From Patescibacteria group bacterium (GTDB taxonomy: Bacteria; Patescibacteriota; Patescibacteriia; 2-01-FULL-39-33): a stretch of 64,000 nucleotides of DNA. Both the position numbers and the translations under genes were made by a program. This document shows, one piece after another, positions 1-45,004 of the stretch. The first letter of the stretch is position 1. The number at the start of each line of letters is the position of its first letter. The stretch is taken from contig JBAZRV010000001.1 of NCBI GenBank assembly GCA_041662745.1, forward strand, positions 384 through 64,383, written 5' to 3'. The notes beneath the pieces are model-generated. The model made no database searches. It was not told where the DNA came from and saw only the letters and a program-made list of their open reading frames with translations.

Positions 1-3000
1 GTTTTCTATAACAATCGGATCGGTAAAATTGTTATGGCCGGGACAAGATCCCTGATTGCCGGTAGTTAATTCTACGCTGGCAATACGGAAATAACCCTTA
101 TCAGAGGGGGCAAACAAAGCGTCTTGATAGGTCCGCCAATCGGTCTCCTTTTGCGCCGTAGAAGTTGCTTTTGACCTGACAAAATCATTAACAATGGAAT
201 AATTGGCCGTTCCCTGGCTCCAAACACCGCTGGCTTGTTCCTCTTCGCGCCAACTCCAATTATAAGTGTCGGCATTAAGAATGATACAAACATTGTCTTC
301 GCTGACAACATCGGATTTGTGTGGCTGTTTCTGACCGTAATATCGGCTGATAAACTTTTGCGGCGAGCAATGCACGCAACCGACGCGACAATATTTGTCA
401 TTATCGCTTTGGCTGCGGGTATGGAAATTCCAACAGAAGGCGGCGTTGGGGAATTTCGCCGGATCATCGCAACCTGACGATTGCAACGCCTGCCCGTCAG
501 CATATAGAGGGAATCCCTCATAACTGATAACTCCGCTGGTAAGCACTATTTTATAATCAGCATCAGCTTCCAGGGACTGGGGCATAAATTCAAAATAATC
601 AAACAAGTCAGGACTGCCAAAATCACGACTGGCATAAGGACTAAAAGAACCGTTAGGCACTACCGCTTGCCACTCCCCGGCGCCATCCTTTTTATAAATT
701 TTCAAGTTCTTCCAACCCGGTGTCACTAAATCTATTCCGGTTAACGATTGCACATTCATGGGTCGATTGAATCTGGCTGAAATGGCGGCATTTAAACAAG
801 CATCGGAATTAGTCACTCCCGGGATAACCGTCGTCCATCTGTCTGATGGCGTCGGCGAAGGCAGGTTATCCTCATCTTTGCAAGTTTGGCTACGGGAACA
901 GTCCACTACGACATAAAACTTCTTCGGTCCCAATTCATGAGTAGCCAAAAACGTCCAAGAATATAATGATAATGAAGCTTGTTGTCCTGTCGGATAACAA
1001 ACTTGATTAGGCAGCGGCTCACAACCGCCCCAATGGCCGTTAGCTTGGCAAATACGCTGCTGTTGGCAGTTACCCAAGGCCGGACAACTCTTTAAATCAA
1101 CTTGGTTGGGCGTACATAATTGGGCCTTTGGTACGCAAGTGCAAGCATCGTGAGCAAGCGAAATCTCATTGATCACTAAATGATCAGTGGAAGACGATTT
1201 TCCAACCGCGTTCTGTTGGCCCACCGAGGAATTAGAAAAATAAATAAAGTCATTAGCCGAACCGGTGTCTAAACCATCAATTTTTCTTCCCCAAGAACCA
1301 GGTGAAAAAGCCACCGTCGAAGAACTGTAAGCAACCACATCGGCAATTTCATCGCTTACCCCCCTAACGAAAGCAATGGTGCCTTGATTTTTGCTAAGCT
1401 TAAAATTATTGCTGGGGTTGAGTGTTGAAGTGCTAATAATAAAATAATCACCGGCCTTCAAAGTAACGCTTTCCGGTATGTAGTAGGTTACGGCACTGTT
1501 ATCATTCAATAAATCATTAATACTCTCCTGTTTGCCGGAATAAATAATACGCCAATTGTCTAAGTTAATATCGGAAATTGTGGGATTATAAATTTCCACC
1601 CATTCCTCGTCTGACCTTACGGTATCGCAACCCAAATCACTGCCGCAATTTTGCGGGTCACAAGTGCCATCATGCCATAAATCAGACAAGCAGCGACGGC
1701 CGGATTGCGGAGCAAGCGAAGCCAAGAATGACCAAGAATACAACCCCAACGAGGCCGGAGTAACACCCAAATAAGAAACGCAATTGGGATCATCTTTAAC
1801 GCAAGCTCCCCAAGTATTATCTACTCGGCAAGTTTTCTTGCCCAGACAACCGCCCAAATCGCAACCGGTAACGGCATTCTGTGTCGGATCGGAGCTATAA
1901 ACACATTCCTGGTCGATTGGTTTTTGGCAAGTACAGTTTTTATCCATATCGCAATCGGAGCGATAAAACCATTTACCGACATCTTCTGTTTTATTACTGC
2001 ACCCCTGGCAAGCCAGATTATTTTTACAATCGTTACTTGAGGCCAAGCAAACCGCAGGATCGTTGCTGACACTTGCACCGCACGGATCACCTTCTGATCC
2101 ATTACCGATATTAAATAAAATCGAATTGCTATAACCATTATTATAAACTCTGACCGCTGATTTTCCGCGTTTATTCTCCGGCACCACATCTTTGGCTGAA
2201 GTGTTAGTCCAGGAGGTGGCGGCAGTGGAAGTTATACCGACTAAATTACTAAAATTGGTACCGGTATCCCTTAAATACCAAATCACTTTTCCCGTGCCAT
2301 CAGCAGCAAAACCGCGACCCGTCAAATCGACGGATGTCGGGAAAAGCCCGCTGGTCGGATCAATTGAGCACAGACCTGGCAATTCAATATTATTAGCCAA
2401 GAACGGCCGAGAATTACTGGTTAGGGGTATTAACGGCTTGGTTTTGTTGACAACTTCAATGTCATAATTGGCCGGCAAATCATTAATTGAATCCAACCCT
2501 GCCGGCACTTCAACTATAATTTTGTTATCCTGCCACGCCGTGGCGCAATCAGCCAACTTAGCTAAAGTAATAACACCATCGCTTTTAGCGATAAACCTGA
2601 CTTCGCCTACGACTTGGCCGAAACCGCTGCCATAAATAGTCAAATAATTGCCGACAGCGCCATAACCGACATCATCAGCCAAAGAATTAATATCATTCAA
2701 ATCACTATCATTGTTAAGATCAAAAGACGGATCAAGCCAGTTAATCGCCGGATCGCCGACACAATAACAATTAGTACCGCAATAATTAGTGCAGTTAGAA
2801 TCAGCGCAGGTTAGATCGTCAGGACGGGTGCAAGAAAAACCTGGGCAGTTCTGGGTACAACCGCCACCGCAATCAACGCCCTGCTCGTCTGCATCCTTAA
2901 AGCCATTAAAACAATGGGCGGGAGAAAATTTAACTTGCACCTTATTAGAATAATAAGATTTATCATTAGCAAAAGACCTTAAAGTGGTGGAAGTTAGGTT

Positions 3001-3846
3001 TTGATATTCAGTTGAAGAAGTATCCCAAGGAAAGGTGGTGGAGGCAGCATTGTATTGCCGGCCATTTATGATAACCGTTTGCGAATTAACATCAGTTGCG
3101 CCAACCTGAACTTCAGTTGAGCCATTCAAATCAAATAAAGATAAATCATTAACCGTATCTTCAGAATTATAAGAATATACCTTTACTTGCAGGGTGGGGC
3201 TTTGGGGAATTTGCACGCTACCGGAAAAACCGATTGAGCATTCGCGACTGCGACGTTGCGGCAACCAATTAGGAAAGGCGGGATCGGAAAACTCACAAAT
3301 TGTCGCTCTCTTTTTGGTAGCATCAAATAAACAATCAACGCCGATACAACTCGGCACACAGGTTGAATCGGTTTGGGCGCAACTGCCCCAAATTTCATCG
3401 TCACCGCAGACTTGCTCTCCACCACAACCGCCGATAGTGCAGGATCTGACATCATCAGGAGTACACGTTTGTCCTTGCGGATTAAACCAATACATTAAGA
3501 AAGTAGTAACGGCAAAAGCGGAAAAAATGATCACTAAACCAATAATGGCATTATAAATGGTTCTCTTAGCCTTATTGACCTTATCTGGATCGCCGCCGGC
3601 CGTCATCCAAGTAAAACCACCATAAATAATCAGCAACACCACGACTACTCCGAGCAAACCGAAAAGTATTTGCAAAATCCGCCCGATAATCATGCCTAAG
3701 CTGGCAGTGCCGAAAACTCCCGACAAGCTTTCCAGTGTCGGAGCAGCCGGCGCCTGCGCCAAAACAAAATTACCAACAGCAAAAACCGCTGCCCAAACAA
3801 GCAGAGACAAAAATATTTTTAATTTTACTTTACGTTTTGAAGGCAT
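1..3846 (-). CDS. Giant secreted/cell-surface protein, N-terminus complete, C-terminus cut by window edge (>1280 aa). Signal peptide + two-helix VirB2/TrbC-like (T4SS-pilin-like) module (motif WMTAGGDPDKVNKAK) + Cys-rich ectodomain with a lamin-tail-like segment (EWVEIYNP...LDNW)
   Basis: Manual minus-strand translation from ATG at 3846 runs without a stop to position 1. Spot-checked blocks at 1-60, 421-540, 1201-1320, 2101-2160, 3001-3060 and 3541-3600 are all in the same frame. The first ~110 aa are a near copy of the N-terminus of the downstream 1105-aa paralog. Not in the ORF track because the stop lies outside the window. Confidence 0.6.
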   Translation of the reverse strand, partial: MPSKRKVKLKIFLSLLVWAAVFAVGNFVLAQAPAAPTLESLSGVFGTASLGMIIGRILQILFGLLGVVVVLLIIYGGFTWMTAGGDPDKVNKAKRTIYNAIIGLVIIFSAFAVTTFLMYWFNPQGQTCTPDDVRSCTIGGCGGEQVCGDDEIWGSCAQTDSTCVPSCIGVDCLFDATKKRATICEFSDPAFPNWLPQRRSRECSIGFSGSVQIPQSPTLQVKVYSYNSEDTVNDLSLFDLNGSTEVQVGATDVNSQTVIINGRQYNAASTTFPWDTSSTEYQNLTSTTLRSFANDKSYYSNKVQVKFSPAHCFNGFKDADEQGVDCGGGCTQNCPGFSCTRPDDLTCADSNCTNYCGTNCYCVGDPAINWLDPSFDLNNDSDLNDINSLADDVGYGAVGNYLTIYGSGFGQVVGEVRFIAKSDGVITLAKLADCATAWQDNKIIVEVPAGLDSINDLPANYDIEVVNKTKPLIPLTSNSRPFLANNIELPGLCSIDPTSGLFPTSVDLTGRGFAADGTGKVIWYLRDTGTNFSNLVGITSTAATSWTNTSAKDVVPENKRGKSAVRVYNNGYSNSILFNIGNGSEGDPCGASVSNDPAVCLASSNDCKNNLACQGCSNKTEDVGKWFYRSDCDMDKNCTCQKPIDQECVYSSDPTQNAVTGCDLGGCLGKKTCRVDNTWGACVKDDPNCVSYLGVTPASLGLYSWSFLASLAPQSGRRCLSDLWHDGTCDPQNCGSDLGCDTVRSDEEWVEIYNPTISDINLDNWRIIYSGKQESINDLLNDNSAVTYYIPESVTLKAGDYFIISTSTLNPSNNFKLSKNQGTIAFVRGVSDEIADVVAYSSSTVAFSPGSWGRKIDGLDTGSANDFIYFSNSSVGQQNAVGKSSSTDHLVINEISLAHDACTCVPKAQLCTPNQVDLKSCPALGNCQQQRICQANGHWGGCEPLPNQVCYPTGQQASLSLYSWTFLATHELGPKKFYVVVDCSRSQTCKDEDNLPSPTPSDRWTTVIPGVTNSDACLNAAISARFNRPMNVQSLTGIDLVTPGWKNLKIYKKDGAGEWQAVVPNGSFSPYASRDFGSPDLFDYFEFMPQSLEADADYKIVLTSGVISYEGFPLYADGQALQSSGCDDPAKFPNAAFCWNFHTRSQSDNDKYCRVGCVHCSPQKFISRYYGQKQPHKSDVVSEDNVCIILNADTYNWSWREEEQASGVWSQGTANYSIVNDFVRSKATSTAQKETDWRTYQDALFAPSDKGYFRIASVELTTGNQGSCPGHNNFTDPIVIEN

Positions 3847-3866
3847 GATCGCCTATTAACTTAATT

Positions 3867-6800
3867 TTAATTACAGCCGGCGCCGTCGCAACACTTGCCC
3901 AAACAGCACTTAGTAACTCCGCTGGCGTCAGCTATGGGGAAATCCTTAGTTATTACCCAACTGCCATATTTAAATTGAGTCGTATCAATGGAAGTGGCAA
4001 TCGGTTCCATGCAAGTCTTGGTACAATTCGGTCTAGCGCCGACGATATCCTTACAATTCATATAGCCGAAGGAAACGGGATTAACCTTATTAACCGGAGA
4101 GGGCGTAATTAAACCCAAATCAGTAACGCAACCAGCGGTATTATATTCATCATTGATTTTATAACGGCATTTATTGAATTCAATATTAGCCTGATAGCCC
4201 CAACCTGATGGCAACGTTGCTGGATCAGCTGCCGCGTTCTGCGGACCGGCGCCCGGCAAGTAACAATTCTGCGTAATTGATTCTAAACCTGAACCGGCAC
4301 CGGGCGCATAAGTTACCGCCTGATCGTAAGGATTATGATTAAGTAGGGCCGCGCTATAATCAATCAGGCCGTCACCCGAACCCTGACCGTAAACATCGCC
4401 TTCATCTAAATTTTTTACGCTGGCCCAATAACCGACGGGATTAGCGTTTTGCGTCACTGTATTTAACATTAGGAAGCGGATATAAAAATCCCTGTCCGCC
4501 AAGCCCTCGCCATAACCGAATCCCGGCTTTAAGGTTACGGGATTCATTAAACGATCGAAAGAAAAAACAATGGGATCGCCAAAAGTTTCATTAATATCCT
4601 GCCCCCAACGTTGATCACCCTTCGGCTGAATAGAAAATAACAATGGCGCCTTGTCGTCAATAACTGTTGAAACGAAAAATGACCAGGAAAAATCATCACC
4701 TTGAGCCGAATTAGTATTATAAGTCGGTTTTTCAATGCCATTATCAATGGTAAAAGTATCGTTTACCAGGTAGGGATTAGCCAAGCCGGAGTAACCATAA
4801 AGCGTACCGGTGACGACTCGCCCCGTATGGCCTTCGGCTATGCCCACTATTTTACCCTTATCATCGGTTGCGCTGGTATAGTTGCCATTTAAGGAGTTAC
4901 CGGCCATATCCATGATACCGACAGTGCTTTCTAAGGCAGCCTTCGGATAATAAACGCCATTCTTCTGACAGCGATCATAAGCGTCGCCGTCACATTGGCC
5001 GCCCCAACGCTTGCACCAGCTATTATCACTATCATCTATACCCCCACCTTTGCACGATTGCAAAACAGCCGCAGAAATTACCACCCTGAACGGCTCTGAC
5101 TTAGCAGCCGCTCCAGTCGAAGGGTCAATCCAGCAATATCTTTCTTTGCCGCAAGCATTTTTGCCGCAAGCGTAAATACCGGTCATCTGTACTGTTTTGT
5201 ATTGATTGGAAATTTCATATTTTATCCTATCTGCCGCGATATCGGTCCAAACATCACCGATCTTATTTTGAACCTTAATGGTATTAGACAGACTCAGCGG
5301 GTTAACCGCTTTGTTAAAAGTAACGAAAAAAACGGAATTATTATAAGGATCCGGCGCCGCTCCTTGCGGAGTCTTAAGTTGAGCCTTATCTTTTCCGGAT
5401 AAATCGCCAACAACCGTCATGGTGTTATCAATCGCCGATTTATCAATGCTCAAAGTATTAGCTCCCGCTCCCTTGGGTTCAATAATCAAATATCTAAACA
5501 AACCGATTGATGCGATAGAGACATTCACCGAATTCCTGGCTTCGGAGCTGATAATAGCACTACGCAAATTTTCCAACGTGTCGCTAACATTGGCCGACTT
5601 GATTACGGCGATGTAATTGACAGTTACCGGCTGACCGTCAGCTCCGACTTGGGTTTTAGCGATATTGGCATCGTTAATATAAGCATCGGAAGCAAAAATA
5701 AAATTAATTTTACTGGTGCTGTTATTAATAGTATAAGTATCGCCGGTAACGGCTGTTTCGGCAGTGAACCTCCATTGGCTGCCCCGAGGGAACGTGCCAC
5801 CCTCAGCGGCGATAGTTAAACCATTGCCCAAATCAAAACTTACGCCGTTTACTATAGTAAAAGGTTTACCGCTGAGCGGAGCCGGGGAATCGGCAGAAAA
5901 TACAGCCGTTCTGCCGTCGCTGGAAACAGTAAAATTAGCAGTGCCCGCGCCGAGCTCAAAACCGCTTTGCGCGCTGACATAAGCCTTAAAGCCGGCAGGA
6001 ATATTACCGCCGGAATTAATCAATTCCTTTCTCAGCGGCCGGCCCAAAAAATACTCGCCCTGCAGTTTGATTGGTTTCTCCGCCTTCAGATCAACCAAAG
6101 ATTGAATCGTAGTGGTTGACCGTCCTAACGTAGACTGGGAAGATGCTGAATATAAATCAGGAAGGGTATCGGGGTAGGGATAAACCTCATACTTTACGAT
6201 CTGCGGCGGATCCAAGTCCATTTTGCCGTTGGTTTTGAAGGACCAAGCAAAATAATCCATTTTCCATAACTTAAAGATTGATTCGCCGGTGGAAGAGGCA
6301 ATGATGCCGTTCTTTAAAGTTACCATGAACTCTCGATTGGCGTTATCCTCTTTGCCTAAAAATGATTTAGTCATGAAAACAAAGGTTTTGGCATTGCCCG
6401 GAGTTTGAGTAACGGTTGTATTGGCACCAGCAAAAACCTGAGCAGTGAAATCGCCTGTTCCTAAGCATTTACGCGGAGTGGAGGCCGTATCAGCTTCACA
6501 AATTTCAATATTATTGCTAGCGCTATTAGAACAATAACCCTCGGCATTGGGGACGCAAATACTATCCGATTTAATATTTGATTTAAAAGTTACGACAATT
6601 CTGGTGTCAATTGACACATCCGCCTGATTAGGCGCAGGATAAACGCTTTCAATCGGCCCATTGCCGATGCCGCCTCGCCCCCAATCATCCGGTCCGCCCG
6701 GTATGCCTCCGCCTCCGCCCGCGCCGCCGCCTCTTGGACCGAACAATCCCATCAGCCAAGTAGTAATGGCAAAGGCCGCGAAAATGATTATTAAACCGAT

Positions 6801-35344: not shown

Positions 35345-38300
35345 CTAAAGCTTTTCAATTTTTATCTTTACTTTTTCGCCGTTAATACTGACTGCCTTGG
35401 CATCGCTATCAGCCTCTATGATTTCCTGAGTTAGGGTGGATTTTTTCAATTCCTCATTAAGCAGAGCATCGCCAAAGACTTTTTTAACCGTTTCTCCTTC
35501 ACTCTGCCAGCTCAGTTTAATCCGGTCTTTAATGGTCAAGCCGGCATCCTTGCGCAAGGTATTAACAGTCCTGACAAATTCGCGCCAAGCGCCTTCAACT
35601 TTCAATTCATCAGTCAGATCGGTATCCAATTCCAATTTAATCTCCGTCCCGCCGGCAAACTCTAAATTCTTAAGATTCAGTTTGTCCTTAATCAAATTTA
35701 TGAGTTGCTGTTTATATGGTTCTTCGGCTAACGCCAAACCGAAAACCGTGGCCTTGTTAAGCGGTTGCCTGATTTTTATCTTAGCTTCGGCGCGGGCGGC
35801 TAAGCCCAACTCTTCTATGGCAGCGGCCAAACCCATCTGCTCTTTCAATTTGTCGCTGTAAGCGCTCGCCTCCTTGCTACCGTATAATTCCTTATCAATT
35901 TCCGGCCAACTCTCCAAATGGACCGATTCCTTCTCACCGCCGATCTGTTTGTAAACGTATTCGGCGACAAAGGGCGTAAAGGGTGCCATGATCTTGGATA
36001 ATTCCAGCAGGACGAGCCGGAAAGTGGCGATGGCTTGATTCTTGTCCGCTTCATCATCGCCCTTCAAGCGTTCGCGCGACGATTGCAGCCAACGAGTGGA
36101 GAACTCGTCTATGAATTCAGCCAAGGGGCGGGTGGCGCGGGGCAAATCATAAGCTTCCATGTTCTTGGTCACTTCCAAAAGCAACAGATTTAACTTTACC
36201 GACAGCCATTTATCCAAAATATTATCGCTTTTAACCGGCTCGGACGCCGCTGTCCCAGAAACTTCGTATAACTTATAAAAACTCAGAATATTATTCAACA
36301 GCATGGTAACCTTTTGCATTGCTTCTTTGACGGCGTCATCGGAAAAATTCAAATTTTCCGCAGTCATGACTGGCGCGGTCAAAAGATAAAAACGCAAGGC
36401 GTCGGCGCCGTATTTGTCCATGATTATTTCCGGTTCCGTGTAATTCTGCAAGCGCTTAGACATCTTCTTGCCGTCTTCAGCCAGAACAATGCCGTTGACA
36501 ATGACGTTTTTGAACGCTTCGCTGTCTCGTACGGCTGTAGCAATGATGTGGAGATAATAAAACCAAGCGCGCGTCTGATCCACGCCTTCGGCAATAAATT
36601 GCGCCGGAAAACCGGCCAGGAATTTCTCCTGATTCTCAAACGGATAATGCTGTTGGGCGTAAGGCATGGAACCGGAATCAAACCAAGTGTCCAGCACATC
36701 GGGAATTCTCGTCATTTTTTGGCCGCATTCTTGACAAACAATCTGCCATTGGTCCACGAAATGCTTATGCAAATCGGTTATCTTCTGTTTTATCTCCAGC
36801 ACTTGCCCTTTCTCCACCGCCAAATCCCTAAAGGTTTGGCTCGGTTCGTAGCCGTAAAGCCTGCCCAAAAACGACTTGATCGTGTCTTCGTGGCTGACCA
36901 ATAAAATATTCTTGCCTTCGTACTTTTCATTCAATTCTTGATACAGGGCCAGGGTCCGCTCCGTCACTTGCCGAACGCTTTCACCGGCCGGATAAGCATT
37001 ATCCCAATCGCTTTTCCATTTGGCGATAACCGCCTTGGCTTTATCGTCAACATCGGATTGTTCTTCCAGCTCGCCGGCATCAAGCTCGTTCAAGCGGGCG
37101 TCAAAAACCAGCTCTGCGCCCGTAACTTCGGCGATGAGCTGAGCCGTTTCCTTGGCGCGCAAGACTTCGGAAGAAACGATCAAATCAATTTTTTTATCTT
37201 TCAATCCGTCGGCGGCAACTTTAATTTGTTCTCGGCCGTTAGCTGTCAATGAGTAAACACCCAAACCGCTGCTGAACACGTGTTTAATATTCTTTTCCGC
37301 TTCGCCATGCCTGATGGCGAAAAAATTATTCCGATCTATTTTCAGCTCTTCCAGCTCAGCCACGCTGCCGATGACTTTTATTTCACCGCACTGGCACCGC
37401 CACAGCGGAATGACGCTGGCCCAAAATCGCTGACGGGAAATTGACCAGTCGCGCGCGCCCTCCAGCCATTTGCCGAAACGGCCTTCCTTAATATGCGCCG
37501 GCGACCAATTAATATTCTTGGCGGTTTCCAACGCCTTCGCTTTGATGTCTGTTACTTTGACAAACCAGGAACTGGTGGCGTAATTGATCAGCGGCGTATC
37601 GCACCGCCAGCAATGCGGGTAGCTATGTTCGTATTCGGCGCTGGCAAAAAGCAGTTTGTGTCTGTCCAGATATTCAATGACTTTTTTGTCGGTTGCCTTG
37701 GTATCTTCCGCCGGCTTGACATTCAGGCCGGCAAAATCAGCCACTTCATCCTTAAAATTCCCTGCCAAGGTCACATTCTGAATGAAAGCCAAATTTTCTT
37801 CTTGGCCCAATTGCATATCTTCTTCACCATAAGCCGGAGCGATATGCACTACGCCGGTGCCATCATCGGTGGTGACGAAATCAGCGGCTACGATAGTGTA
37901 TAAATTTTCTTTATTGGGCAAATCTTTGTCTAAATAATATGGGAATAACGGCTTATACTCTTTGCCAATCAATTCTGAACCCTTGAACTTGTCCAAAACC
38001 CGGACTTGCTGGCCGGCAAAAACTTTCTCCAAAAGCGCTTCAGCCAAAATCAATTTTTCACCGGGTCTGACCACTGACATCGTAGCAGTTATCTTATTCC
38101 CGCCTTCAACATCATAAGCTTCCATTTTCTTATTGGCGCCAGAACTGACGACAACATAGTCAATATCTTTTCCCACCGCAAGCGCCACATTGCCCGGCAG
38201 AGTCCAAGGCGTGGTCGTCCAAGCCAAAACATAAGCGCCCGGCTCATCAACCAACTCAAATTTAGCCGTCACCGACAAATCCTTAATATCCTTATAACCC

Positions 38301-38884
38301 TCACTAACCTCCTGCTGGCTCAGGGTTGTTTCGCATCTGGGACAGATATGCATGGACTTATAACCTTCATAAACCAAACCCTTGTCATACAATTCCTTAA
38401 ACACCCACCAAATTGATTCCATGTAAGACAAATCCATGGTCTTGTAAGAATCGTCCATATCCGCCCAGCGGCCGAAACGGGCGATGGTCTTTTTCCATTC
38501 CTCAACATAAACCAAAACCTTGCTGCGGCAGTATTCGTTGAATTTACCAATGCCGTAGTTTTCAATATCTTTCTTGCTCTTAAAGCCCAGTTCTTTCTCC
38601 ACGATGTTTTCAATGGGCAGGCCATGGCAATCCCAACCCCAGCGACGCTCCACATAACGGCCGCGCATCGTCCAAAATCGCGGCACCACGTCTTTCATCA
38701 GACTGGCGACCATATGGCCGTAATGCGGAGTACCGGTGGCAAACGGCGGGCCGTCATAAAAACTGTAAGCCTCGCCAGCCCTGGTCTGTTCCAGTGATTT
38801 CTCAAAAATTTTATTATCCGTCCAAAATTTTTGGATCTCTCGCTCTCTTTCCGGAATCGGATTAACCCACTTTTTTTCTTCCAT
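35345..38884 (-). CDS. ileS: Isoleucyl-tRNA synthetase with a ~180-aa histidine-phosphatase (PGAM-like) domain inserted between the Zn-knuckle Cys pairs
   Basis: Start at MEEKKWVNP. HYGH (HIGH) and KMSKR (KMSKS) present. Insert …FFAIRHGEAE…LTANG…IVSSEVLRAKETA…LVSHEDTIKSFL (RHG…H catalytic pattern) between WRCQCGE and CQECGQ, coordinates ~36790-37330. Confidence 0.9.
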   Translation of the reverse strand: MEEKKWVNPIPEREREIQKFWTDNKIFEKSLEQTRAGEAYSFYDGPPFATGTPHYGHMVASLMKDVVPRFWTMRGRYVERRWGWDCHGLPIENIVEKELGFKSKKDIENYGIGKFNEYCRSKVLVYVEEWKKTIARFGRWADMDDSYKTMDLSYMESIWWVFKELYDKGLVYEGYKSMHICPRCETTLSQQEVSEGYKDIKDLSVTAKFELVDEPGAYVLAWTTTPWTLPGNVALAVGKDIDYVVVSSGANKKMEAYDVEGGNKITATMSVVRPGEKLILAEALLEKVFAGQQVRVLDKFKGSELIGKEYKPLFPYYLDKDLPNKENLYTIVAADFVTTDDGTGVVHIAPAYGEEDMQLGQEENLAFIQNVTLAGNFKDEVADFAGLNVKPAEDTKATDKKVIEYLDRHKLLFASAEYEHSYPHCWRCDTPLINYATSSWFVKVTDIKAKALETAKNINWSPAHIKEGRFGKWLEGARDWSISRQRFWASVIPLWRCQCGEIKVIGSVAELEELKIDRNNFFAIRHGEAEKNIKHVFSSGLGVYSLTANGREQIKVAADGLKDKKIDLIVSSEVLRAKETAQLIAEVTGAELVFDARLNELDAGELEEQSDVDDKAKAVIAKWKSDWDNAYPAGESVRQVTERTLALYQELNEKYEGKNILLVSHEDTIKSFLGRLYGYEPSQTFRDLAVEKGQVLEIKQKITDLHKHFVDQWQIVCQECGQKMTRIPDVLDTWFDSGSMPYAQQHYPFENQEKFLAGFPAQFIAEGVDQTRAWFYYLHIIATAVRDSEAFKNVIVNGIVLAEDGKKMSKRLQNYTEPEIIMDKYGADALRFYLLTAPVMTAENLNFSDDAVKEAMQKVTMLLNNILSFYKLYEVSGTAASEPVKSDNILDKWLSVKLNLLLLEVTKNMEAYDLPRATRPLAEFIDEFSTRWLQSSRERLKGDDEADKNQAIATFRLVLLELSKIMAPFTPFVAEYVYKQIGGEKESVHLESWPEIDKELYGSKEASAYSDKLKEQMGLAAAIEELGLAARAEAKIKIRQPLNKATVFGLALAEEPYKQQLINLIKDKLNLKNLEFAGGTEIKLELDTDLTDELKVEGAWREFVRTVNTLRKDAGLTIKDRIKLSWQSEGETVKKVFGDALLNEELKKSTLTQEIIEADSDAKAVSINGEKVKIKIEKL

Positions 38885-39190
38885 ACTGTTATTTATGATT
38901 ACTGTTTGTTTAAAATAAAAAACACCAACTTGGCTGACCGGAGCCCTCGCGGGCGGTACCATCTCGGTGTTTGACTTGATTTCAGCTGTTACGGGCTGAC
39001 CGGCCGATTTTACTTTCCGTTACAAACGGGTTTCTTTCGGCAGCTCCAATGGTGATAACCACTGTCGGGCGCTGTTATTGATTGTTTAACTTGCTTATAC
39101 GATATTTTCAATATAACAAAAATCAAATAAAAAGTCAAAAATAAAAGTCGCCACTGCCGATGGCCTGGCGACTGAACTTACTCGGACTGA
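38885..39190 (-). promoter_or_regulatory. Putative T-box leader upstream of ileS
   Basis: Minus strand contains AGAUGGUACCGCCCGCGAGGG (cf. T-box GGGUGGUACCGCGG). A hairpin AACACC…GGUGUU + UUUUUUAUUUU lies just upstream of the start. Confidence 0.4.
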
Positions 39191-39197
39191 AATTATA

Positions 39198-39740
39198 TTA
39201 CTTACGTGTCTGCGTATCAGCATTAACCCGTAATTCGGCGTTGCGGGTCATAACCGAACCGGTGTCGTTGTCCACATAACAAAAATAATAGTCGTCATCT
39301 TCAAGGCTGATTTGCGGCCAGCTAAGGGTTGGAGATTGCGCCGTGGGATTATCAACCGGCAGATAAATCTTGCACAACGGGCAATGATTGCGTCGGCACC
39401 ATTGATAGCGCAGGTTATTGCCCACGGCCACCACGGTCAAAGACACCGCCTGTCCTTCATTGACAGTGAGATCATCGGGTTGGCGGATGATCATCGGCGG
39501 CATTTCCATCTCACCCCCCCCTGCGACGCCGCAACAAAAGCCGTCTTCAGTGCCGACTTCAGGGCAGGCATGATAAGCGCCGCTATTATAAAATTGGATC
39601 ACCCGCAATAATTCCGCAAGCGAGATTATGCCGTCCCGATCAACATCGGCGTCATGAAAATTATTTATCTCCGCCACTATTGGAAACAAACCGACGGCTA
39701 AGATAAAAACCAAGATCAGCAACAAGGCCCTGCATCTCAT
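39198..39740 (-). CDS. Secreted protein with dockerin/EF-hand-like Ca-binding motif and an Ig-like (I-set-like) domain
   Basis: Signal peptide; DVDRDGIISLAELLRVIQ; Ig-like …PDDLTVNEGQAVSLTVVAVGNNLRYQW…DDDYYFCYVDNDTGSV…. Confidence 0.6.
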   Translation of the reverse strand: MRCRALLLILVFILAVGLFPIVAEINNFHDADVDRDGIISLAELLRVIQFYNSGAYHACPEVGTEDGFCCGVAGGGEMEMPPMIIRQPDDLTVNEGQAVSLTVVAVGNNLRYQWCRRNHCPLCKIYLPVDNPTAQSPTLSWPQISLEDDDYYFCYVDNDTGSVMTRNAELRVNADTQTRK

Positions 39741-40147: not shown

Positions 40148-40353
40148 TTGAATACGCTATCATATCAATAGTTAATTGTCAATTAAAGGATTGCTCGTCC
40201 GGCAGGGCTTATGGGGCGATTTTGGAAAAATTAAGTGACGAGGATTAGAACTATTTAAAAAGTTCTTGATTCGTATAAACTGTGAATAACTATTTGACGT
40301 TTTTACCGGCATTTGTTAATATGCGTATATAAGACACAAACTAAAAATTATTT

Positions 40354-41031
40354 ATGAATTTGGGCAATAGCAAATACCAAAATCAATATCTGCATGCTGA
40401 CGCCGCAGTCTTTACGGTCGAAGACCGTAAGGTCAAGTTGCTTTTGGTGCGCCGTTCCCGCAAACCCTACATTGGACAGTGGTCGCTGCCGGGTGGAGGA
40501 ATTTACCGCACAGAATCAGCTAAACAGGCGATAAAAAGGGAATTGGCATACAAGACTGGATTGAAAAATCTCTATCTGGAAGAATTCGGCGTCTTTAGTG
40601 AGCCGAAACGCGATCCACGCGGCCGCATCATCTCAATCGCCTTTCTCGCCTTACTAGATAAGAACAAAGTGTCGCTATTGCAGAAAACACCCAAAACCAT
40701 GGGCGCGAAGTGGTTCGACATAAAAAAGTTGCCGCCTATAAAATGGGACCACAAAAAAATCACCAACTTGGCTATTGCAAAGCTGCGCAAGCGACTTTTG
40801 GAATCCAACATTGCTTGCCGGCTGTTGCCGAGATACTTCACGCTGCCAGAATTGCATAAGACTTATGAAATCATCCTTGGTAAACAACTCGATCGTCGCA
40901 ATTTCCGCAAGAAATTCCTCAAGCTGGGCTTGATTATCAAGACAGAAAACAAGGAACGCGGCAGTAGGAACCGTCCGGCCGCCTATTACAAGTTCAAGAC
41001 CGAACAGCATCAGGATATTTCCATCTTTTAA
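40354..41031 (+). CDS. Nudix hydrolase with C-terminal winged-helix-like extension (NrtR-like architecture)
   Basis: Nudix-like box GGGIYRTESAKQAIKRELAYKTGL plus a ~90-aa basic C-terminal tail. Confidence 0.6.
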   Translation: MNLGNSKYQNQYLHADAAVFTVEDRKVKLLLVRRSRKPYIGQWSLPGGGIYRTESAKQAIKRELAYKTGLKNLYLEEFGVFSEPKRDPRGRIISIAFLALLDKNKVSLLQKTPKTMGAKWFDIKKLPPIKWDHKKITNLAIAKLRKRLLESNIACRLLPRYFTLPELHKTYEIILGKQLDRRNFRKKFLKLGLIIKTENKERGSRNRPAAYYKFKTEQHQDISIF

Positions 41032-41120: not shown

Positions 41121-42299
41121 ATGCCCAGTTTCCATCTCTGCAATAACAACGTCTGCACCCGGCTCTATCTTTTCGGCCAGGATTTAAAAAGCCTACTGTT
41201 GCAAAACTGCTGGCAGGAATTGCCTCTGAACCAAGCCGACCTTATTTTCGTCAATTCATGTTCTTTCCTAACAAAGACCGAAAATTTTTTTCTGGCTAAG
41301 ATTGAAAAATTAGACAAATCCAAAACCGCCAACCAGAAAATCATCGTCTTTGGCTGCTTGCCGCATACTTCTCTCGAAAAATTAAGAATGGTCTTCTCCG
41401 GCGAAATCATGCCGGCCAGGGACCTGGCGCAAGCAGCCGACCTGCTTGGTTTAAAATCAATAAACAGTAATATTGGCTATTCGATTCCGCGCCAATTGCG
41501 AACTTTAGATCGTTTCAATTATTTCATCAATAAATACCTGATTCGCAATGCCTATTTGGGCTATCTGTCCGGCGAACCGGCCTATTACCTCAATATCGCC
41601 CGAGGCTGCCTCGGCAAATGCACATATTGCTCAGAAAAAACAGCTCGCGGACCCCTTTCCAGTTGGCCGATTGCCGATATCGCCGCCTCTTTCCGAACCG
41701 GCTTGAAGCAAGGCTATAGGATATTCTCCCTTAATGCCGATGATGTCGGCGTTTTCGGCTGGGATCGGAAGGAAAACATCGCCGGATTGCTCAATGAACT
41801 GCTATCAGCTGACGGTGATTTTAAAATTATCCTGACAGAATTCAATCCCTGGGGTTTGATCAAGCATCAGCAAGAACTACTGTCGCTTCTGGCTTCAAAA
41901 AAAATAGCTCATATTACCATTCCCCTCCAATCCGGCTCGGATAAAATCCTCAAGCTGATGAGGCGACCTTATTCCATTCTGACAGTCATGGACATTATAA
42001 GACTTATTAGAAATAATAATCCAAACATCATCATCAATACCCATCTGATCGCCGGTTTTCCGGGAGAAACCGAAGAGGATTTCAGACTGACACTTGATCT
42101 CGTCAAGTCTGGCCTGTTTGACAAGGTCAAAGTCTTTCCCTATTCCGATCGACCGCAAGTGCCGAGCTACGACTTGCCGTATAAAATTCCGCCTCGAATA
42201 ATGGCTGAACGCTCCCGACGGCTGAGATATGAAACCTTCAGGCAGGCGCTACTGAAGCTAAACCTTAGAAATATATTGCTCAATCTGCAAAAAATTTAA
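41121..42299 (+). CDS. Radical-SAM methylthiotransferase-like enzyme (MiaB/RimO/MtaB family) lacking a C-terminal TRAM domain
   Basis: N-terminal MTTase-like domain (IFVNSCSF…), CxxxCxxC (GCLGKCTYCS), IAGFPGETEEDF box; 392 aa ends directly after the radical-SAM core. Confidence 0.7.
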   Translation: MPSFHLCNNNVCTRLYLFGQDLKSLLLQNCWQELPLNQADLIFVNSCSFLTKTENFFLAKIEKLDKSKTANQKIIVFGCLPHTSLEKLRMVFSGEIMPARDLAQAADLLGLKSINSNIGYSIPRQLRTLDRFNYFINKYLIRNAYLGYLSGEPAYYLNIARGCLGKCTYCSEKTARGPLSSWPIADIAASFRTGLKQGYRIFSLNADDVGVFGWDRKENIAGLLNELLSADGDFKIILTEFNPWGLIKHQQELLSLLASKKIAHITIPLQSGSDKILKLMRRPYSILTVMDIIRLIRNNNPNIIINTHLIAGFPGETEEDFRLTLDLVKSGLFDKVKVFPYSDRPQVPSYDLPYKIPPRIMAERSRRLRYETFRQALLKLNLRNILLNLQKI

Positions 42300-42302
42300 T
42301 TT

Positions 42303-42875
42303 ATGACCATTCTAATCTGTGGACAATCAGGCACAGGAAAAACGACGCTGGCCAAAATTATGGCAGATAAGCTTAATGCTGTCTGTATTTCGACTGACAG
42401 CATTAAGTTGTTTGCGCGTGCCAGCGGCTACGGCAATGCCTTTACCTATACCGACAGCCACGGCGCCTGGTCTAAGTTTGGTCGGAAGAATCGCCAGAAT
42501 ATCATCCGCGGCTTCAAAGCTCACAATCGCGTGCTCGAACAGCTCATTACAGACATCATCAAAGAAGCCGACGGTATTTCCCAACACTTAATCGTCGAAG
42601 GCGTTCAAATTACGCCTAAAATGTTAAAAGAGTTGCCAGGTGAAAAAATGGCTATCTATCTAGATTTACCGTGCAAAAAAACTCACTTCAAAATTTTCGA
42701 CTATAAGAATTCGAGACGCAAAATCGCCAACACTTTGTGGCGCGCCAATTACGATGCTATCCGACTGATTAATGACTATACTAAGGATGCCTACCGCCGA
42801 GCCGGATTCAGCATTATTAGGTCAGCTCCAGCCGAGCTTGTGGCCGATCGGTTGCTAACAAAAATCCGCATATGA
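42303..42875 (+). CDS. P-loop kinase (AAA_33 / 2-phosphoglycerate-kinase-like / polynucleotide-kinase-like)
   Basis: Walker A ICGQSGTGKTTLAK; 190 aa; starts 4 nt after the upstream gene. Confidence 0.6.
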   Translation: MTILICGQSGTGKTTLAKIMADKLNAVCISTDSIKLFARASGYGNAFTYTDSHGAWSKFGRKNRQNIIRGFKAHNRVLEQLITDIIKEADGISQHLIVEGVQITPKMLKELPGEKMAIYLDLPCKKTHFKIFDYKNSRRKIANTLWRANYDAIRLINDYTKDAYRRAGFSIIRSAPAELVADRLLTKIRI

Positions 42876-43735
42876 ACGACTACCGAGATTGCGATTATTT
42901 CATTGATGACTTGGGCGACATTCATATTGTGCGCGGCTACTTGCATCCAGTCAACTTAGTGCGGACCAAGCTGATATACAAAAAAACTTCCGCAGGCGAT
43001 CGCAGCCGCCGCAACGGAGATTGCTACGAAAAAAATCAGATCGACCAAATTATCTATCTCCCGGCCAGCCGTATAAAAGAGTATTTCCGGCCATTAAATA
43101 ATCCCATAAAGACGAGTTTGGAGGGTCTCTGGCTGGACATGTATAACGAGCTGAATAATTACGTCGCTGCAGACGACATTGGAATTTTCGGCTCCAGCCT
43201 ATTGGATTTTCCAGTCACCCGCGATGTCGACTTTATTATTTATGGCTTGGACAATTGCCGACGGATAAAAAGCAATATAGAAACGATCAAAATGGCGATG
43301 GCAGTGCCGGGAATCTCAACCAATCACATCAATTATCAATCGCAAAAATTTTCGGCATCGCATGAACCGGGCAATAACACCCTAGCCAAGACTTTAGCCA
43401 ACAAGTGGTGCACGGTGCAAATCGCGCCGGGAGTTTCCAACACGTTGATGTTCGGCTACAAGGCGGAAGAAATCGGCGACTGGCTAAATGCCGATGACCG
43501 GCCGGGGAAAGACATTGTTGTGGAGGGTGAGGTCCTAGATGATATCCGCACCAACTTCAGCCCGAGGATTTTCAACGTACGGGATCGCCGTGGTATAATT
43601 TTTACAGTAAAAACATATTATTGGGCTTATCATGCCTGTGTGCGCATCGGCGACATAGTTACGATTGCGGGCAGATTAGTCGACCGCAACATAATTCTAT
43701 TGAATAATTTCAATCACGGCATCGCAATTAGATAA
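42872..43735 (+). CDS. Minimal nucleotidyltransferase (Pol-beta superfamily) with C-terminal OB-fold-like domain
   Basis: GIFGSSLLDFPVTRDVDFIIYG (GS…DxD NTase motif); start overlaps the kinase stop (ATGA). Confidence 0.55.
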   Translation: MNDYRDCDYFIDDLGDIHIVRGYLHPVNLVRTKLIYKKTSAGDRSRRNGDCYEKNQIDQIIYLPASRIKEYFRPLNNPIKTSLEGLWLDMYNELNNYVAADDIGIFGSSLLDFPVTRDVDFIIYGLDNCRRIKSNIETIKMAMAVPGISTNHINYQSQKFSASHEPGNNTLAKTLANKWCTVQIAPGVSNTLMFGYKAEEIGDWLNADDRPGKDIVVEGEVLDDIRTNFSPRIFNVRDRRGIIFTVKTYYWAYHACVRIGDIVTIAGRLVDRNIILLNNFNHGIAIR

Positions 43736-43782: not shown

Positions 43783-43887
43783 CCCTCCTCGTCCCGCCTG
43801 CCTGCCGGTAGGCAGGTCCGCCCTAACCATAAATCAACAAAAAAGACCTAAATTCATAGGTCTTTTTATGTTACTTCATTAAGTGAA
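43783..43887 (+). repeat. ~105-bp repeat element, copy A (GC-rich hairpin CCTGCC-N8-GGCAGG + terminator hairpin AGACCTAaattcaTAGGTCT-TTTTT)
   Basis: About 90% identical to 44683-44790; the embedded terminator is at 43842-43870. Confidence 0.7.
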
Positions 43888-44040: not shown

Positions 44041-44610
44041 ATGCCATTGTTTAATATTGATCGCCCTAAGGCAGAAAGAATTAAATCAAGGTTGGTTGCC
44101 ATACTACCAACCAAGAAGCAGAAAAGAGAAATATTCCTAGCCACCGCCAGAAGAGTGGTCGGTCGAAAAGTAATCGAATGGAATTCTTGTTGTGGCACCT
44201 ACGGCCAGGGCGGGCCGGGATTCTTGGGTTTTAAGCTTGAAAAAAATTTCAGATACCACGAAGAATGGTTGATCTTAAGAATTTGGGGTGCGGATAATTG
44301 GTTGCTGGTCAACGGTCTATGGTTTGCGGCCGATCCCGATCAATATGATATTCAAGTCCCGCTTTATTCAAATTATTATGAAAAAGAATGGGATAATTTT
44401 TCCGAACTAATTATAAGCGAAAGAATAGAGACATTCGAGATTGCTGAAAAAACTATGACAATTACCATTGGATCTACTGTTATTTCGCTTGGCGATAATC
44501 CGGAAGAGCGGCCCAGATATGCCGGTAACGGCGATCAACGCAAACTCGATGAAGCTGATGACCTACGAGAGGCCTGGATACTTTCTCCTTATGCCTGGGT
44601 TGAAATATAA
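44041..44610 (+). CDS. Hypothetical protein (189 aa) bracketed by the two repeat copies
   Basis: SD AAAGGAGAAAG 7 nt upstream of ATG; no recognisable domain. Confidence 0.5.
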   Translation: MPLFNIDRPKAERIKSRLVAILPTKKQKREIFLATARRVVGRKVIEWNSCCGTYGQGGPGFLGFKLEKNFRYHEEWLILRIWGADNWLLVNGLWFAADPDQYDIQVPLYSNYYEKEWDNFSELIISERIETFEIAEKTMTITIGSTVISLGDNPEERPRYAGNGDQRKLDEADDLREAWILSPYAWVEI

Positions 44611-44806: not shown

Positions 44807-45004
44807 TTACTCTCCCCAGGAAATCGCCTGTGTTGGACAAGCACCGATAGCCTCGTCAATCTTGGCTTTTTCCGCTTCATAATCCGCCTCCAAAACTGTG
44901 GCAATCATCCTGCCGTTTGCTTCGGCCACCTTAAAAACTGCCGGGCAAATAGCCTCGCAAGTGCCGCAAGCGATGCACGCTTCGCTGACTGATGGTTTTG
45001 ACAT
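44807..45004 (-). CDS. Small ferredoxin (single Fe-S cluster)
   Basis: CIACGTCEAICP…GACP. Confidence 0.75.
   Translation of the reverse strand: MSKPSVSEACIACGTCEAICPAVFKVAEANGRMIATVLEADYEAEKAKIDEAIGACPTQAISWGE

Follow-up and report, generated by a model that had tools for sequence, protein, structure and literature searches.

A conserved three-gene module linking a TRAM-less methylthiotransferase-type radical SAM enzyme with a P-loop kinase and an OB-type nucleotidyltransferase

To our knowledge, every characterised methylthiotransferase (MTTase) carries its own TRAM domain, and the substrates of these enzymes are A37 of tRNA or the ribosomal protein S12. In the SFLD, the MTTase subgroup has the architecture MTTase, radical S-adenosylmethionine (SAM) and TRAM, and all the characterised MTTase families act on macromolecules (10.1101/717249). 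Here, we report on a 64,000-nucleotide (nt) stretch of DNA from a Patescibacteria group bacterium (GenBank assembly GCA_041662745.1, contig JBAZRV010000001.1, positions 384 to 64,383 of the forward strand; hereafter the window), in which an MTTase-type radical SAM enzyme without TRAM is encoded together with a P-loop kinase and a nucleotidyltransferase (NTase) ending in an oligonucleotide/oligosaccharide-binding (OB)-like fold. This trio is a real and conserved module, undescribed as far as we found, which forms a new TRAM-less MTTase branch with kinase and NTase-OB partners and is built from known enzyme superfamilies. Its genes in the window are the following:

41121-42299, plus strand: TRAM-less radical SAM gene, an open reading frame (ORF) of 392 amino acids (aa)
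42303-42875, plus strand: P-loop kinase gene, an ORF of 190 aa
42872-43735, plus strand: NTase-OB gene, an ORF of 287 aa

The tight coupling of these plus-strand genes, noted in an initial annotation of this DNA, was confirmed, as was the 4-nt ATGA overlap between the kinase and NTase genes; the gap between the radical SAM and kinase genes, given there as 4 nt, measures 3 nt by sequence (TAA-ttt-ATG).

The Pfam search of the radical SAM protein returned PF00919 (UPF0004; 37.4 bits against a cut-off of 27) and PF04055 (7.7e-18) and no match to PF01938 (TRAM). TIGR00089 aligned over its model positions 20-361 of 429 with 229.7 bits, below the cut-off of 251. Among the NCBIfam subfamilies, TIGR01578, the archaeal/eukaryotic MtaB type (MiaB-like-B), ranked first (186.6 bits, cut-off 314.7), followed by RimO (169.8, cut-off 356.95), MtaB (168.2, cut-off 357.05) and MiaB (150.6, cut-off 355.3). 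The matches to the solved structures of RimO (the best, 7.6e-34) and MiaB (7.8e-25) both ended with the radical SAM module. A database search gathered a clade of about 45 clusters, all without TRAM, with lengths of 374-399 aa and 37-63% identity, and the nearest proteins outside this clade were TRAM-bearing archaeal MtaB-type enzymes at approximately 32-35% identity. When aligned with eleven of these TRAM-bearing archaeal relatives, the window protein stopped exactly at the start of their TRAM. The three cysteines of the auxiliary cluster (C12, C47 and C79) and those of the CxxxCxxC motif (C163, C167 and C170) were kept in 40-41 of 41 clade members. Because the kinase start codon lies 3 nt past the radical SAM stop codon, no room is left for a frameshifted TRAM.

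The Pfam matches, the extent of TIGR00089 and the end of the alignment all agree with the initial assignment of the first gene to the MTTase family of radical SAM proteins with a CxxxCxxC core and no TRAM. The possibility raised at that time that the TRAM loss might be an annotation artefact is ruled out by the lengths of the 41 clade members and by the alignment end at the TRAM boundary. Judged from its sequence, this protein is a genuine two-cluster MTTase-type enzyme from which TRAM has been lost clade-wide. Like MiaB, RimO, MtaB and e-MtaB (CDKAL1-type), it has UPF0004 with three cysteines and the CxxxCxxC core, and it can be aligned with them up to the TRAM boundary; unlike them, it scores below every curated cut-off and belongs to its own clade beside a kinase and an NTase-OB protein. 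Since the SFLD subgroup definition includes TRAM, the window enzyme is a relative of the four characterised families and not a member of them.

For the co-conservation analysis, loci were gathered from exact-protein look-ups, GTDB genomes, metagenomes and IMG/VR and scored with our own profiles of the three proteins. From these, we used the 18 non-redundant loci in which no less than 2.5 kb of sequence flanked the NTase gene on each side, and a partner was counted when it lay within 2.5 kb. The kinase was present in 17 of the 18 loci and the TRAM-less radical SAM enzyme in 14, a co-conservation far beyond chance. These data bear out the three-gene module proposed in the initial annotation and remove the doubt that the genes might not be kept together elsewhere. 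The lineages concerned are Buchananbacteria, Patescibacteria, Woesearchaeota, Pacearchaeota, Clostridia, Bacilli and one metagenome-assembled genome (MAG) of Muribaculaceae, and the trio was also found on one IMG/VR contig. At least four gene orders occur, usually with overlapping stop and start codons. The order radical SAM-kinase-NTase was found in the Candidate Phyla Radiation (CPR; the window, L009 and L003) and, among archaea, in L086 (Woesearchaeota) and L004, and the order kinase-radical SAM-NTase in DPANN loci and all Clostridia/Bacilli-type loci; in L005 the radical SAM gene is followed by convergent NTase and kinase genes, and L030 has the order kinase-NTase-radical SAM. Signs of decay were seen in L002, where the radical SAM gene is internally deleted beside an intact kinase and NTase, and in L017, which retains an NTase remnant alone. 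The distribution is sporadic and crosses the boundary between bacteria and archaea, which, together with the variable gene order, suggests horizontal transfer; the transcription unit in the window may well be horizontally mobile. The NTase was not found in plasmid or cultured-phage collections. A full-text literature search gave no description of the trio; the RNA-repair survey of Burroughs and Aravind lies outside the coverage of that search.

In some operons, from archaea and metagenomes, the radical SAM enzyme is replaced. The Pacearchaeota locus L087 has the arrangement AAA_28 kinase, kinase, class-I methyltransferase and NTase, with the methyltransferase in the radical SAM slot, and class-I methyltransferases flank the NTase gene in L011, L022, L024, L026 and L029. 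L023 and L028 have only the NTase and kinase. Because of this replacement in L087 and the bare pairs in L023 and L028, the kinase-NTase pair looks like the core of the module and the (thio)methylating enzyme like an exchangeable part.

Several variants of the radical SAM gene were also observed. In L002, the CPR gene (2514-3152) is broken by internal deletions into pieces of 108 and 86 aa, through either the decay of this component or an error of assembly. In L004 (1799-3553; protein P0012), the MTTase bears an N-terminal extension of approximately 190 aa with weak similarity (E 3e-5) to the separate CYTH protein encoded at the corresponding operon position in L007 and L027; a CYTH domain is probably fused to the radical SAM N-terminus there. 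In Buchananbacteria, and in this lineage only, a 273-aa RlmN/Cfr-like radical SAM gene (L009, 5271-6092) lies immediately upstream of the module. Its product covers positions 104-306 of the 355 of the RlmN model, and most of the RlmN N-terminal domain is apparently missing. RlmN, too, modifies adenine C2.

The third protein had no sequence match in Pfam, NCBIfam, PADLOC or the PDB. A word-indexed search yielded six relatives, and a profile search of 1.84 billion representatives yielded 231 (E <= 1e-3), of which 51 also passed E <= 1e-30; almost all measured 280-350 aa. In an alignment of 68 sequences, G107, D118, D120 and P231 were invariant and G104, S108 (66 of 68), G125, V221 and G267 near-invariant, and R232, F234, Y249 and W251 on the OB strands were conserved. 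Among these 68 homologues, 17 matched PF01909 (NTP_transf_2), 8 PF18765 (Polbeta) and 7 PF22600 (MTPAP-like_central). When the family profile was compared with solved structures, the NTase core best matched Trf4 (E 0.0035), TUT4 and TUT7, and the C-terminus matched RPA32. The AlphaFold2 (AF2) model, with a mean predicted local distance difference test (pLDDT) of 87.5 and a predicted template modelling score (pTM) of 0.83, has three domains:

residues ~1-75: N-terminal six-stranded beta domain (AF2)
residues ~77-204: alpha/beta Pol-beta NTase core with G107, S108, D118 and D120 (AF2 and alignment)
residues ~205-287: C-terminal five-stranded OB-like barrel (AF2)

The Foldseek matches of the model were all OB folds (IF1, the anticodon-binding domain of LysRS, RPA and SSB; probability 0.97-1.0, E at least 1.8e-3). 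As modelled, this Pol-beta NTase looks catalytically intact and ends in an OB-type domain. The GS...DxD signature and OB-like C-terminus recognised at first are therefore retained, and only the description as a minimal NTase is given up, because the protein has 287 aa and three domains, including the N-terminal beta domain that had not been mentioned. Two ideas about this protein were tested and rejected. Its isoelectric point (pI) proved uninformative as an indicator of RNA binding, and the OB domain is not a detached TRAM by profile comparison (probability 0.2 when hhalign compared the profiles of its OB and N-terminal domains with those of TRAM).

Further members of the NTase family were found in other settings. 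In a Bacilli MAG, the NTase-OB gene is tandemly duplicated (L015, 7860-9606; two copies of 285 aa). On a 3.2-kb contig (L021, 857-2779), a 640-aa protein fuses NTase-OB to a polyprenyl synthetase (homologue P0170) and adjoins a PIN/MazE pair and a gene resembling serine hydroxymethyltransferase. Approximately 44 metagenome loci of Methanobacteriaceae (L040-L084; for example L045, 7986-9002) encode distant homologues of about 340 aa with 22-28% identity, which are named only "DNA polymerase subunit beta" or "hypothetical protein" in their sources. No kinase or MTTase was found within 8 kb of the NTase gene in these ~44 loci. In every case, the NTase gene lies upstream of a gene resembling homoserine dehydrogenase and is transcribed divergently from a QueE-QueD-(DUF296-like x2) cluster, a synteny of a single lineage to which we give little weight.

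The kinase is, by sequence comparison and at the family level only, a member of the 2-phosphoglycerate-kinase (2PGK)/mevalonate-3-phosphate-5-kinase family (COG2074-type). These two gave the best family matches and the only ones over the full-length domain (NF003259, 2e-15, 56.9 bits against a cut-off of 343; NF008996, 6e-13, 48.9 bits against 250), and the alignment covers positions 93-277 of the 306 of the 2PGK model. A DPANN orthologue reached 124.3 bits on the same model, again under the cut-off of 343, and the Joint Genome Institute annotates these kinases as 2-phosphoglycerate kinase. The Walker A positions G7-x2-G10-x2-K13 and the pair T31-D32 were invariant in 5 orthologues. The matches to polynucleotide kinases, PSTK, adenylate kinases and Nrk1 span the P-loop only; hence, of the two resemblances suggested initially, that to 2PGK stood and that to small polynucleotide kinases did not. 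The protein shares with 2PGK and mevalonate-3-phosphate 5-kinase the full-length kinase domain, the Walker A motif and the T-D after strand 2, but it is far under their curated cut-offs, lacks the part N-terminal to the 2PGK kinase domain and is always linked to the NTase-OB gene. A connection to isoprenoids, suggested by the mevalonate-3-phosphate 5-kinase likeness and the polyprenyl synthetase fusion P0170, was rejected because the fusion comes from one short contig and the kinase match is at the family level only.

A regulator gene and several signals surround the trio in the window:

40247-40266, no strand assigned: 20-bp palindrome (AGAACTATTT/AAAAAGTTCT) upstream of the regulator gene, a candidate operator
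40294-40322, plus strand: sigma-70-like promoter match by consensus (TTGACG-17-TAATAT, TG-extended), upstream of the regulator gene
40354-41031, plus strand: NrtR/AraR-like regulator gene, 225 aa, ending 89 nt upstream of the radical SAM gene
43840-43867, plus strand: hairpin with a perfect 11-bp stem, then a T-run, after the NTase gene, a probable intrinsic terminator

On these sequence features, the hairpin is the probable terminator closing the transcription unit, and a four-gene unit of the regulator and the three enzymes is plausible because a sigma-70-like site and a palindrome lie upstream and the hairpin with its T-run downstream. No palindrome comparable to that at 40247-40266 was seen in the AT-rich upstream regions of L012 and L013. 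The NrtR-like Nudix regulator reported immediately upstream by the initial annotation is confirmed by its Pfam matches (PF21906, 1.6e-23; PF00293, 2.6e-18), which correspond to a C-terminal NrtR winged helix and a Nudix domain, respectively. The window shares this upstream regulator with two loci of Clostridia (L012 and L013); the window and L012 proteins are 44% identical. The NF050029 (NtrR) score was 136, below the equivalog cut-off of 400, and the closest solved structures were Bacteroides AraR (7e-41) and Shewanella NrtR (4e-31). As read from the translation, the Nudix box is degenerate (REL-A-YK versus REUxEE) and lacks the catalytic Glu-Glu pair, suggesting that the regulator would be a sensor and not a hydrolase. 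It thus resembles NrtR and AraR in its Nudix plus winged-helix architecture and the non-catalytic NrtRs in its degenerate box; it differs in its score under the NCBIfam cut-off and in adjoining the trio instead of NAD-salvage or arabinose genes.

Other genes accompany the module in subsets of loci. In seven Firmicutes-type loci, the operon starts with an overlapping gene for a short GFO/IDH/MocA oxidoreductase. In L003 (CPR) and L086 (a woesearchaeote), the NTase gene overlaps at its 3' end with a gene for a His_Phos_1-Nudix fusion, and the NTase remnant of L017 is flanked by Nudix and His_Phos_1 genes. DPANN operons contain a CYTH protein (L007 and L027) and also a YfcE-type metallophosphoesterase; NadR-type AAA_28 kinases occur in L007, L028 and L087, and HD_4 and HDIG genes in L022 and L085. 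In DPANN, the module is always preceded by a divergent gene of approximately 280 aa (L004, L007, L011, L027, L035, L086 and L087; for example L027, 2015-2878, minus strand) with weak winged-helix (DUF7342) and PLD-like matches, which may be an archaeal regulator or a phosphodiesterase component. GalE was considered as a fourth component in CPR and rejected: it scores as an ordinary GalE, occurs in only two syntenic loci and is probably unrelated.

The surroundings of the module in the window were also examined. Just past the terminator, a 189-aa ORF (44041-44610, plus strand) has no Pfam, NCBIfam or PADLOC family match and is not kept beside the module in other loci. A 65-aa single-cluster ferredoxin is encoded about 1 kb from the module (44807-45004, minus strand) and likewise in L086 of Woesearchaeota (3676-3873). 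This ferredoxin could supply the radical SAM enzyme with electrons; as a conserved partner it was rejected, being near the module only in the window and L086. On the minus strand at 35345-38962, IleRS (1205 aa) has a complete His_Phos_1 domain inserted at residues 549-721 (E 1.2e-37), which splits its catalytic domain; the His_Phos-Nudix gene after the module in L003 shares 33% identity with this insert in its His_Phos_1 part, a similarity at the family level only. Between IleRS and the regulator, a small, apparently secreted protein (39198-39740, minus strand) combines an EF-hand/dockerin-like N-terminal motif with an immunoglobulin-type domain (Ig_3, I-set; E ~1e-6), which is unusual in a CPR genome.

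A question raised from these findings is what the three enzymes do together. Their substrate is probably either RNA or some molecule resembling a nucleotide. We tentatively favour the interpretation, held at well under even confidence, that the trio marks single-stranded nucleic acid, with RNA or tRNA the likeliest target and the OB protein as the substrate adaptor. In such a scheme, the three enzymes would act jointly on one nucleotide-containing substrate. The NTase-OB protein, serving as both transferase and adaptor, would bind and present the nucleic acid, thereby standing in for TRAM in trans. The MTTase would attach SCH3 at an unactivated C-H of the adenine-C2 type, by analogy with its archaeal/eukaryotic MtaB-type relatives, the NTase would transfer a nucleotide to a hydroxyl of the same substrate, and the kinase would phosphorylate a hydroxyl, priming or locking the nucleotidyl step. 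A Nudix-type repressor gene would lead the transcription unit, and the neighbouring Nudix, His-phosphatase, CYTH, HD and metallophosphoesterase proteins could remove the mark, clean up precursors or process ends. Since a methyltransferase takes the MTTase position in related operons, we infer that the module may write a mark of the type "methyl or methylthio plus phosphate/nucleotide". A role at RNA ends or on tRNA is plausible because of the OB fold, the weak similarity to Trf4 and terminal uridylyltransferases (TUTases) and the CYTH, Nudix and phosphoesterase neighbours; these phosphoesterase neighbours (CYTH, His_Phos_1-Nudix, metallophosphoesterase and HD) resemble RNA-end-processing toolkits. 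Nucleic-acid marking is further favoured by the co-conservation of the trio, the clade-wide TRAM loss with both cluster motifs intact, the macromolecular substrates of the characterised MTTase families, the aromatic and basic residues kept on the OB strands (R232, F234, Y249 and W251), the PF22600 matches of seven homologues and the class-I methyltransferases at or beside the radical SAM position.

Several observations weigh against nucleic-acid marking. The OB fold matches are statistically not significant, Foldseek gave no significant neighbour for the NTase core taken alone (pLDDT 91), and neither the OB nor the N-terminal domain shows profile similarity to TRAM by hhalign. The third carboxylate of the NTase is not invariant, with E200 (52 of 68) as the only conserved downstream acidic position, and the protein is not clearly basic (pI 7.0 in the window; family median 8.7 with a wide spread). 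The characterised relatives of the kinase phosphorylate small metabolites only. The NrtR/AraR-type regulator and the GFO/IDH/MocA oxidoreductase (7 loci) would fit small-molecule or nucleotide-sugar metabolism better. Finally, neither a tRNA gene nor any other gene for an RNA accompanies the module, as judged from the window and the 10 loci searched.

An elaborated form of nucleic-acid marking appears rather unlikely to us. In it, the trio would be the writer of a composite, cap-like or tag-like mark on RNA ends or loops, and its MTTase, with substrate binding outsourced to the OB-bearing terminal NTase and with a kinase of its own, would represent a fifth class. The neighbouring CYTH, Nudix, His-phosphatase and HD proteins would, in this equally doubtful extension, be the priming and erasing enzymes, and the sister operon would methylate instead of methylthiolate.

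Nearly as likely as RNA marking, and likewise only a possibility, is a pathway to a soluble nucleotide derivative or cofactor, for which TRAM loss would be expected, the substrate not being a macromolecule. Here, the kinase would make an X-phosphate, the NTase would nucleotidylate X, and the MTTase or methyltransferase and the oxidoreductase would tailor the base or sugar; alternatively, the kinase may act after the NTase and phosphorylate its product, in the manner of APS kinase and dephospho-CoA kinase. The Nudix-domain regulator would sense the nucleotide-linked product, and the Nudix and His-phosphatase proteins would reverse the two activation steps. This pathway accounts better than RNA marking for the regulator, the oxidoreductase and the kinase family: the characterised kinase-family members use small phosphorylated acids, the NrtR/AraR-like regulator accompanies the module in both CPR and Clostridia and has as its closest solved relatives proteins that bind arabinose or ADP-ribose, and the oxidoreductase heads the operon in its 7 Firmicutes-type loci. 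The His_Phos_1-Nudix (L003 and L086), NadR-type AAA_28 (L007, L028 and L087), CYTH, HD_4 and HDIG neighbours are also consistent with it. In contrast, no characterised MTTase has a small-molecule substrate, the OB fold and the Trf4/TUTase-like core of the Pol-beta NTase point to nucleic acids, the search of the window and 10 loci revealed no riboswitch, for cobalamin or otherwise, genes for cobamides or NAD salvage do not consistently adjoin the module, and the GalE neighbour in CPR is an ordinary, probably unrelated one. As products, we can only speculate on a 2-methylthio-adenine nucleotide, an analogue of NAD or ADP-ribose, or the 2-methylthioadenine lower ligand of a cobamide. We know of no enzyme assigned to the biosynthesis of the 2-methylmercaptoadenine cobamide ligand. 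2-Methylmercaptoadenine is a natural cobamide ligand (PMC11321594). The genomic context lends no support to the 2-methylthio-adenine/cobamide candidate.

The sporadic cross-domain distribution, the variable gene order, the IMG/VR contig and the decayed genes of L002 (radical SAM) and L017 (NTase remnant) would also suit an anti-phage or conflict system, as would the isolated toxin-antitoxin neighbours PIN/MazE (L021) and HicAB (L087). We regard such a system as unlikely. It would work in a viperin-like manner, with the radical SAM enzyme and kinase making a modified nucleotide that the NTase-OB protein appends to nucleic acid, invading or self, or with the NTase-OB protein making a signal, and the hydrolases might provide immunity or signal decay. 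However, the window proteins and nine trio proteins from three other lineages gave only P-loop-level or partial matches in PADLOC-DB 2.0 (E at least 2e-4), which we read as P-loop noise, so that the defence-related role also offered initially is not borne out. Apart from the weakly PLD-like divergent gene of DPANN, no effector (nuclease, TIR or pore protein) is present in the loci, most of the neighbours have housekeeping roles (IleRS, ArgRS, SerRS, trigger factor, topoisomerase and PCNA), and the NTase is absent from plasmid and cultured-phage collections.

It is highly improbable that the module carries out a RimO-type protein modification, in which the MTTase would methylthiolate a protein residue and the kinase and NTase would add phospho and nucleotidyl marks, even if the RimO substrate S12 is an OB-fold protein. 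The target might then be the OB domain of the NTase itself, with its conserved stretch D223-D224...P231-R232, or a ribosomal OB protein. RimO was indeed the best solved-structure match (7.6e-34 versus 7.8e-25 for MiaB), but NCBIfam ranks the archaeal/eukaryotic MtaB type (186.6 bits) above RimO (169.8), D223 and D224 are only ~50-55% conserved, and the accompanying kinase and NTase would be without precedent. Last, an ordinary MiaB or MtaB gene with a mis-called 3' end beside chance neighbours is refuted by the kinase start 3 nt on, the clade lengths, the TRAM-boundary alignment and the conservation of the trio in many lineages, and we discount it virtually completely.

A TRAM-less clade fixed beside a kinase and an NTase-OB protein implies either a new way of recruiting a macromolecular substrate or the first MTTase acting on a nucleotide-like small molecule, making the module a route to a new modification or metabolite. 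The NTase family comprises 231 representative clusters and has no Pfam or NCBIfam model. RNA marking would, if true, be considerably more novel, giving an RNA modification system common to CPR, DPANN and gut Firmicutes. Because its hosts include minimal genomes (CPR and DPANN), its range crosses domains and a methyltransferase-containing sister version exists, the trio offers a compact and testable three-protein system.

Compared with known RNA-processing and toxin systems, the module stands apart in homology. The kinship to Pnkp/Hen1, CCA-adding enzymes or MNT toxin-antitoxin families raised in the initial annotation found no support in the Pfam, NCBIfam, PDB and profile searches. For MNT-HEPN, no HEPN gene was present in any locus, the NTase has 287 aa and three domains versus ~100-140 aa, and MntA was matched at E 0.4-0.5. 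For CCA addition, the NTase had no Pfam or NCBIfam match and no CCA enzyme appeared among its structure or profile matches. From the RNA-end modification or repair module first proposed, the conserved module and its NTase-OB protein thus remain, and the kinship to end-healing, tailing and defence systems does not. The closest relatives of the NTase by profile are the non-canonical terminal RNA NTases (Trf4/PAPD5 and TUT4/TUT7), which share its helix-hG[GS]-x9-13-DxD signature; in contrast to them, it lacks a PAP-associated domain and an invariant third carboxylate and has its unique N-terminal beta and OB domains. With mRNA capping enzymes and ATP-dependent ligases, the module has only analogous parts in common, namely an NTase with OB and, in some operons, CYTH, a methyltransferase and Nudix. 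Ligases appeared among the weak Foldseek matches of the NTase protein through its OB domain, but the fold is of the Pol-beta and not of the covalent Lys-NMP type, with no KxDG motif seen; the likeness to capping enzymes is therefore functional speculation by analogy, not homology.

The system most similar in its logic is Pnkp-Hen1/Pnkp1-Rnl-Hen1. No Pnkp/Hen1-type domain was detected in the trio proteins by Pfam, NCBIfam or PDB searches: the kinase is of the 2PGK and not the T4-Pnk type, a Pol-beta NTase stands in place of a lysine-adenylating ligase, no ligase is encoded, and the mark-writer is usually a radical SAM MTTase. What the two would have in common is a P-loop kinase working with a nucleotidyl-transferring enzyme and with an enzyme that uses SAM to leave a protective mark, sometimes with a metallophosphoesterase nearby, which is only an occasional neighbour in our loci; some of these loci have a class-I methyltransferase as their SAM enzyme and in this resemble Hen1.

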